Shown here: positions 21,863 through 22,505 of the stretch, in pieces
Layout of the letters: every line of letters starts with the position of its first letter
Numbering within the stretch: the stretch's first letter is position 1
DNA from: Escherichia coli
Lineage (GTDB): Bacteria > Pseudomonadota > Gammaproteobacteria > Enterobacterales > Enterobacteriaceae
DNA length: 64,000 nt
Assembly: GCF_044647545.1 (NCBI RefSeq)
Contig: NZ_CP172818.1
Direction: 5' to 3' (one strand)
Notes under the pieces: generated by a model
The model's input: only the letters and a program-made list of their open reading frames with translations
The model's database searches: none
Told to the model about the DNA's origin: nothing
Program-made: the position numbers and the translations under genes

Positions 21863-22069
21863 TTCCTCGCCTTCCCCTTGAACGGGAGGGCATTTTTCTG
21901 AAATGTCCTCTCTTTAACCCATAATAATATTTCCTTTGCTGGGATTTTTTCGATTTCCGATATATTCATAATTCATCAAGGTTGATATAAATATCAGCGA
22001 AGATCTCCAGATATTGTTGCGGAACTGGCGACGATAAAAGATAAATCAGATGATGAATGGTGGCGTGCA

Positions 22070-22348
22070 TTGCTGCAAAGTCGCAATGATCATTTGCGCC
22101 AAACGGCATTGCGCAACGCACATACCCCGGTGTTGTTAACGACATTGACTGAGTCTCAGGATCGGTCGCTGGCTATTAATAATCCACAGCTGGCTGCCGA
22201 TGTGAAAACGGTGTGGCTAAAAGAGGAGCCATCATTACTCTTATTTGTCGATCAACCCGCTCTTTCGCAGTTACGGGATTTAGTGAAAATCGGGGCAACG
22301 CGGAAAATTCGCAGTGAAGCGCGTCACCGGCTTGAGGAAAAACAATGA
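22070..22348 (+). CDS. ykiA: uncharacterised small ORF (ykiA-like)
   Basis: 92 aa ORF in the position of K-12 ykiA; no recognisable domain; AT-rich. Confidence 0.45.
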   Translation: MLQSRNDHLRQTALRNAHTPVLLTTLTESQDRSLAINNPQLAADVKTVWLKEEPSLLLFVDQPALSQLRDLVKIGATRKIRSEARHRLEEKQ

Positions 22349-22434
22349 CACAACGCCCCTGGAGCAAGTTACAGCGTAAAACGCATAATATTGCTGCGCA
22401 AAATATTATTGCCCGCCGTAGCGAATAATTATAT

Positions 22435-22490
22435 GCCTGGTGTGGCTTCGTACGCCGGATAAGACGCGGCAGGCGTCGCATCCGGCATTA
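22435..22490. repeat. REP (repetitive extragenic palindromic) element
   Basis: GCCGGATAAGACGCGGCAGGCGTCGCATCCGGCA-type imperfect palindrome in the ykiA-rdgC intergenic region. Confidence 0.7.
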
Positions 22491-22505
22491 AAGGTAAATC
22501 AGCAA

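Follow-up and report, generated by a model that had tools for sequence, protein, structure and literature searches.

We analyzed the 643 bp gap between ppnP and rdgC (21863-22505) in a 64,000-nucleotide stretch of Escherichia coli DNA (contig NZ_CP172818.1 of assembly GCF_044647545.1; hereafter, the window), focusing on the open reading frame (ORF) ykiA that lies within it. In all probability this gap is the residue of a decayed two-gene accessory locus together with a repetitive extragenic palindromic (REP) element, and ykiA is a dead remnant. That ykiA is a pseudogene is already stated in public annotation. Here we establish the exact anatomy of the locus, the order of the events that reduced it, including an intermediate allele which survives, and the neutral evolution of ykiA.

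The ykiA pseudogene occupies 22010-22348 on the plus strand and consists of the last 112 codons and the stop codon of a 759-codon DUF2773 gene, as determined from RefSeq annotation, Pfam and alignment to the corresponding locus of E. coli O157:H7. The RefSeq/PGAP label for this interval is a DUF2773 pseudogene, "incomplete; missing N-terminus". A sequence-only reading of the window had drawn attention to a 92-codon ORF at 22070-22348 (+) between ppnP and rdgC. This ORF exists, is initiated by TTG and sits within the pseudogene, whose homologous open frame begins upstream of the TTG, at 22010. It had been described as lacking any recognisable motif and as sitting in AT-rich sequence, and neither description stands. 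The ORF matches the whole profile of Pfam PF10971 (DUF2773; positions 1-81 of 81) at 128.5 bits, against a cut-off of 25, with E=1.1e-37. The ykiA-bearing remnant has a GC content of 48%, compared with ~51% in the flanks, and the AT-richness belongs to the 114 bp that precede it (21896-22009; 31.6% GC). The further suggestion that the ORF is a gene remnant proved correct: 112 of 759 codons are left, there is no in-frame ATG in the remnant (the first canonical start is TTG 22070), its polymorphism is neutral, it has been lost outright elsewhere, and RefSeq calls it a pseudogene.

Comparison of syntenic loci, which the same reading had proposed, revealed intact genes at the O157:H7 locus and a full-length gene at the locus of Escherichia sp. 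E4930. In O157:H7 the ppnP-rdgC gap measures 2,953 bp and contains two genes, a 759-codon DUF2773 gene (protein WP_120795310.1, 759 amino acids) and a 149-codon SF0329-family gene (WP_001303823.1; 149-151 amino acids in the ancestral form), the ATG of the second overlapping the stop codon of the first (ATGA). On the intact large protein DUF2773 covers residues 679-759 (E=3e-40), while the intact SF0329 gene is matched at E=1e-22 in Pfam and 1e-26 in NCBIfam. The O157:H7 locus and that of the window are orthologous, with 97% identity in the retained segments, and have in common the upstream region, the ATGA overlap and the REP element. In the window, however, 646 codons are missing from the first gene and 124 from the second. 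Three collinear blocks relate the two loci, pairing window positions 21578-22004 with O157:H7 positions 2067-2493, 22010-22376 with 4433-4802, and 22367-23489 with 5165-6288; ykiA itself (22010-22348) aligns to 4433-4774. The SF0329 allele of O157:H7 has a frameshifted C-terminal tail, reading AALKNYCPP in place of the AALKIIARRSE seen in the family, in Shigella and in the intermediate allele described below.

The first deletion has its junction at 22004-22010 and removed ~1.94 kb (O157:H7 locus 2494-4432), and with it the start codon and 646 codons from the large gene. The sequence at this junction, GAAGAT joined to CTCCAG(A/G)TATTG, is common to all remnant alleles. The second deletion, with a junction at 22366-22376 (the BLAST segments overlap at 22367-22376), removed 372 bp in frame and lies between 11-nt direct repeats, AAGTTACAGCG and CAGTTACGGCG, which flank the lost segment in the intact gene. 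Because the junctions are identical in all remnant alleles, each deletion arose once. Our population counts cover 5,426 complete E. coli genomes. A locus of intact length is present in 444 of these (8%), both deletions in ~4,450 (the raw count of 4,500 is inferred to include 54 intermediates), and other states in ~480. The intermediate that was predicted, carrying deletion 1 alone with the SF0329 gene whole, was detected in 54 genomes using a chimeric query and verified in strain 88-3493.

At least six allelic states segregate: the intact locus, an intact-type allele with insertion sequence IS3 in the large gene, deletion 1 only, deletions 1 and 2, full deletion of ykiA with a frameshifted SF0329 gene, and replacement of the ykiA locus by IS1. 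In the fifth state, found in GF50/a15-type strains, the rest of ykiA is gone, the deletion stopping exactly at the SF0329 ATG, and the IS1 replacement occurs in another strain. Thus ykiA has been subject to independent further losses in the population, and this repeated, independent loss indicates that most E. coli need neither gene. In Escherichia sp. E4930, where a full-length DUF2773 gene occupies the equivalent position between ppnP and rdgC, the SF0329 gene is a 21-codon scar (MRLRRKTHNIAALKIIIRRSE) with a junction unlike that of E. coli, so E4930 lost SF0329 independently.

To measure selection on ykiA, we compared polymorphism in seven remnant-bearing genomes spanning 93-100% identity, a small sample that yields 36 changes in ykiA. 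These changes comprise 25 nonsynonymous and 11 synonymous substitutions, giving a ratio of nonsynonymous to synonymous polymorphism (pN/pS) of 0.69, and they are distributed uniformly over codon positions 1, 2 and 3 (10/11/15; p=0.56). The nonsynonymous fraction is indistinguishable from the neutral expectation (p=0.20), and the density of polymorphism matches the synonymous-site density of the flanks. In the same genomes ppnP and rdgC together show 5 nonsynonymous and 32 synonymous changes, falling on the three codon positions as 10/1/26, with pN/pS values of 0.08 for ppnP and 0.03 for rdgC. The nonsynonymous and synonymous counts of ykiA differ sharply from those of its neighbors (Fisher p=1.2e-6). 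Relative to these neighbors, ykiA evolves in a relaxed, neutral manner. For the intact large-gene orthologues of O157:H7 and E4930, the ratio of nonsynonymous to synonymous divergence (omega) is 0.24, indicating that the parent gene is constrained while the remnant is not.

Conserved homologues under purifying selection across genera had been named in the sequence-only reading as what would speak against a remnant. Such homologues were found for the full-length parent family (~750-800 amino acids) and not for the remnant itself. As conservation is confined to this full-length family, represented by the E4930 gene (omega ~0.24), Pseudomonas, Tahibacter and YdbD, it confirms the remnant rather than refuting it. 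The 759-amino-acid protein has a signal peptide, an N-terminal beta-helix and a long HEAT-like alpha-solenoid, the fold being taken from an AlphaFold2 (AF2) model. Relatives recovered by a word-index search are almost only from Escherichia, and an exhaustive HMMER search with this protein returned 169 cluster representatives, whose full-length members have 750-800 amino acids and 25-35% identity and include the Pseudomonas and Tahibacter sequences. E. coli YdbD (768 amino acids), which RefSeq calls a "DUF2773 domain-containing bactofilin", is paralogous to the ancestral ykiA protein along its whole length (28% identity over 747 amino acids, E=3e-84) and likewise has DUF2773 at its extreme C-terminus. 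The ydbD gene is found elsewhere on the chromosome, immediately upstream of ynbABCD and with no SF0329 gene downstream, and is intact in ER1709 (1198-3504 of the stretch examined).

Measured against the full-length, YdbD-like architecture, ykiA retains only the last 112 codons. Start codon and N-terminus are both gone relative to the intact orthologues, as in a pseudogene, and the AF2 model combined with the DNA alignment places the ATG, the signal peptide, the beta-helix (residues 68-176) and solenoid residues 240-646 in the part removed. The window therefore holds a fragment of a member of the full-length family and not a member, and on the model ykiA would keep the last ~6 solenoid helices without an export signal. 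As modeled, the DUF2773 "domain" looks like the end stretch of a continuous alpha-solenoid and not like a separable domain, and we suspect that its Pfam boundaries were derived from ykiA-type remnant ORFs. Two short C-terminal-only matches were considered as natural stand-alone DUF2773 proteins and rejected; P0207 is a ydbD gene truncated where its contig stops, and P0229 does not match DUF2773.

The second gene of the locus survives as a 27-codon ORF at 22345-22428 (+; MTQRPWSKLQRKTHNIAAQNIIARRSE), identified from the ORF list, the RefSeq coding sequence and alignment to the intact gene. RefSeq names its K-12 orthologue "protein YkiD". The sequence-only reading had overlooked this ORF. The ORF starts at an ATG that shares bases with the stop codon of ykiA (ATGA). 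A Shine-Dalgarno-like GAGGAA at 22334-22339 (+), 5 nt upstream of this ATG, is unchanged between O157:H7 and every remnant allele and is the native ribosome-binding site of the SF0329-family gene. The ykiD ORF corresponds to that gene minus codons 12-135, in frame, with residues 1-11 joined to the native last 16. Alignment of 32 family members gives a C-terminus of RRKTHNxAAxKVIxxR (the Shigella protein ends KTHNIAALKIIARRSE), and of the 26 residues invariant in these sequences YkiD keeps four: S7, K8, Q10 and N139. No match to the SF0329 family (PF25753 / NF049912) was obtained for the 27-amino-acid ORF in Pfam or NCBIfam. Among the seven alleles, 5 of its 27 positions vary and its length is 26 or 27 residues. 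YkiD is thus an in-frame deletion scar of an SF0329-family gene, and we found no paper stating this origin.

The promoter of the lost gene also appears to remain. According to the O157:H7 alignment, 21894-22004 (+) is the AT-rich regulatory region that stood 5' of the ancestral 759-codon gene, and it equals the K-12 ykiA promoter region. It matches O157:H7 until 2 nt before the large-gene ATG and is conserved among alleles. In K-12 the ykiA promoter is active, has been mapped by 5' rapid amplification of cDNA ends and is activated by BglJ-RcsB (PMC3950696). In the window the BglJ-RcsB core wwTTCykA is matched twice (21894-21901 and 21953-21960), and CATAAT at 21967-21972 is a candidate -10 hexamer; their spacing fits the description in that paper. 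Placing box, -10 hexamer and start on window coordinates would put the transcription start near 21977-21980, and by analogy with K-12 the promoter may respond to BglJ-RcsB in this strain as well. The promoter of ynbA, next to ydbD, is also a BglJ-RcsB target (PMC3950696), and the paralogous ykiA and ydbD loci therefore both touch the BglJ-RcsB regulon. As for the peptide, K-12 YkiD was detected by chromosomal sequential peptide affinity (SPA) tagging in MG1655 grown in LB (VanOrsdel et al. 2018, PMC6001520).

The gap of the window is 100% identical to that of strain FDAARGOS_497 and 95.8% identical at the DNA level to that of K-12. K-12 has a matching locus with both deletion junctions, the same gene order and conserved promoter-region motifs, and its ykiA, too, is a RefSeq pseudogene ("DUF2773 domain-containing protein, missing N-terminus"). 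The window allele differs from K-12 in having one ykiA codon fewer and ~8 ykiA residue differences, and in YkiD it reads AAQNII where K-12 reads AALKII, with 25 of 27 residues identical.

Taken together, the ancestral state was a two-gene locus as kept in O157:H7. Deletion 1 came first and left ykiA with 112 codons that include neither an ATG nor an export signal and cover one-seventh of the solenoid. The SF0329 gene was then collapsed by deletion 2 to the 27-codon ykiD. Transcription from the orphaned promoter may still pass through the dead ykiA frame, and ribosomes may initiate at the surviving Shine-Dalgarno sequence and ATG of the former SF0329 gene, yielding a 27-amino-acid peptide which, without the conserved SF0329 core, is most likely functionless. 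The simplest reading of the residual expression seen in K-12 is that promoter and ribosome-binding site both remain active although the genes they served are lost.

Several observations weigh against this account. The promoter and YkiD data stem from K-12, from which the window differs at several upstream bases and at 2 of 27 YkiD residues. The ykiA frame is open in all seven alleles sampled, an uninformative result given that 1.66 stops are expected under neutrality and that the probability of finding none is 0.19. The pN/pS of ykiA is nominally below 1 and, with 36 changes, would be compatible with weak residual constraint on a TTG-initiated 92-amino-acid product. Finally, most genomes retain the ykiD ORF and K-12 translates it, which leaves some room for a gained function.

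The nature of the lost genes bears on a broader alternative. The SF0329 family is widespread, with 533 matches at ~55-68% identity across Bacteroidota, Firmicutes, Myxococcota and Proteobacteria. In four of six contexts examined, SF0329 genes belong to arrays of small genes that all point the same way, alongside Imm10, SUKH-type, UPF0167, WGR/DUF4240 and DUF2314 genes; one context also places SF0329 beside a tyrosine recombinase. Such arrays look like the immunity-gene arrays of polymorphic-toxin systems, an argument by guilt by association only. A sequence search of the PDB gave nothing significant for either ancestral protein, no fold match was obtained for the SF0329 protein, and neither ancestral protein was significantly matched in PADLOC or PHROGs, which gives no hint of a known defence or phage family. 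The immunity-like contexts, together with the ATGA overlap, prompted the idea that the DUF2773 C-terminus and SF0329 form an obligate toxin-immunity pair. We rejected it, since distant DUF2773 homologues and YdbD have no SF0329 neighbor, SF0329 is far more widespread than DUF2773, and the C-terminus models as ordinary solenoid repeats. The broader alternative holds that the lost module was functional, pairing an SF0329 immunity-type protein with an exported, BglJ-RcsB-controlled envelope factor of 759 amino acids. In that case an envelope or competition module discarded by most E. coli would still be at work in O157:H7, and the ykiA-ykiD transcript or YkiD may have been co-opted, for example as an Rcs-controlled regulatory micro-protein. 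We regard this combination as improbable.

A narrower form of co-option concerns ykiD alone, whose 27-residue peptide or transcript would have its own function, making it one live small gene beside a dead one. SPA-tagged YkiD is detectable in K-12 in LB, the ORF keeps its Shine-Dalgarno sequence and ATG, it is present in ~82% of complete genomes, and it carries a protein name in RefSeq. However, such translation is to be expected simply because the native ribosome-binding site survived, and the sequence retained (four of 26 invariant residues, no family match) is variable in both composition and length among the seven alleles. In addition, ykiD is absent from the intact, intermediate and IS-replaced alleles, and no phenotype is reported for it in the literature searched. 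We consider a function of this kind quite improbable.

Similarly, ykiA could be a functional stand-alone DUF2773 protein of 92-112 amino acids, translated from TTG 22070 or another non-ATG start, whose C-terminal helical repeats work alone. The strong, full-length Pfam match would fit such a protein, as would the GGTGG located 6 nt upstream of TTG 22070, the transcription of the K-12 locus from a regulated promoter, and the open frame and nominal pN/pS discussed above. However, ykiA lacks both an in-frame ATG and the signal peptide of its parent, its polymorphism is neutral-like and sharply unlike that of ppnP and rdgC in the same genomes, and one allele (L012) has indels and frame changes at its 5' end. 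Moreover, the frame is wholly deleted in GF50/a15-type strains and IS1-replaced in another, every DUF2773 relative examined is either full-length (~750-800 amino acids) or a fragment, and in the AF2 model the ykiA region ends a continuous solenoid and forms no separate domain. We judge a stand-alone protein to be very unlikely.

Lastly, the reverse history, in which the short form came first, a mobile two-gene island was later inserted to give the 2.95-kb O157:H7 form, and ykiA and ykiD are no remnants, can be dismissed as next to impossible: despite the low GC content of the intact genes (42-45%, below the flanks), the restriction of the long form to 8% of genomes and the clear horizontal mobility of SF0329 genes across phyla, ykiA is the in-frame C-terminus of a protein with existing full-length homologues, ykiD holds both the N- and C-terminal coding ends of the SF0329 gene, neither of which an empty insertion site could hold, the full-length E4930 gene at the matching position (dS ~1 relative to E. 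coli) points to vertical inheritance, and the intermediate allele exists, contrary to an insertion scenario.

Decay of a two-gene locus thus being the preferred explanation, the remaining elements of the gap can be described around it. The REP palindrome that the sequence-only reading placed after the ORF is present as a single unit at 22449-22489 (core 22454-22486), where ykiD and rdgC converge with their 3' ends. Its arms form an imperfect palindrome, GCCGGATAAGACGC at 22454-22467 and GCGTCGCATCCGGC at 22473-22486, and the predicted hairpin is stable on both strands (-23.5 kcal/mol on the plus strand, z=-3.4; -25.8 kcal/mol on the minus strand, z=-5.4, relative to shuffles). The motif GCCGGATAAGRCGY occurs at two sites in the window, compared with 0.11 expected. 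As an extragenic imperfect palindrome of ~35-40 nt with GCCGGATG-type arms and a stable hairpin, the element agrees with the REP consensus. Like REPs of the Enterobacteriaceae, it is extragenic and G+C-rich and lies between convergent genes; it is a single unit and not a pair as in a bacterial interspersed mosaic element. The O157:H7 and E4930 loci also contain it. The sole Rfam match to the element is a weak, partial one to naRNA4 (E=0.013, below the gathering score), a REP-derived RNA. At permissive thresholds, Rfam gave only sub-threshold matches across 21400-22700 (naRNA4 on the REP and a chance match to anti-hemB), and thus no evidence of a small RNA. By analogy with REPs generally, the hairpin would be expected to act as a 3'-end stabiliser or a transcription barrier between ykiD and rdgC. 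A second, related REP-like unit (GCCTGATAAGACGC) is found at 24495-24508, downstream of mak in the mak-araJ gap.

Both flanking genes, identified from their ORFs and RefSeq annotation, are intact and strongly constrained: ppnP at 21578-21862 (+) on the left, and rdgC at 22506-23417 (-) on the right, with mak beyond. A terminator scan placed a predicted intrinsic terminator of ppnP at 21869-21899 (+), with an 8-bp G+C-rich stem and a 7-nt loop followed by ATTTTTCT. Its folding energy is -15 kcal/mol (z=-2.6), and it is kept across all alleles, including that of Escherichia sp. E4930. The minus strand carries a 101-codon ORF at 22176-22481 that matches no family and overlaps the REP element; it was treated as spurious.

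Nothing in the ppnP-rdgC gap is mechanistically surprising. What this analysis adds to the public annotation is the exact anatomy of the locus and the order of its decay, a quantitative test of neutrality, the recognition of the parent as a YdbD paralogue and the reading of YkiD as an SF0329 deletion scar. For annotation, these results are a caution that ykiA, being a pseudogene, does not belong among the proteins of unknown function. Similarly, YkiD, which was reported as a "new small protein", is a scar that kept its ribosome-binding site, and its detectable translation is therefore no evidence of function. For the biology of E. coli, the locus offers a compact case of stepwise gene decay in which every stage is still segregating in the species.
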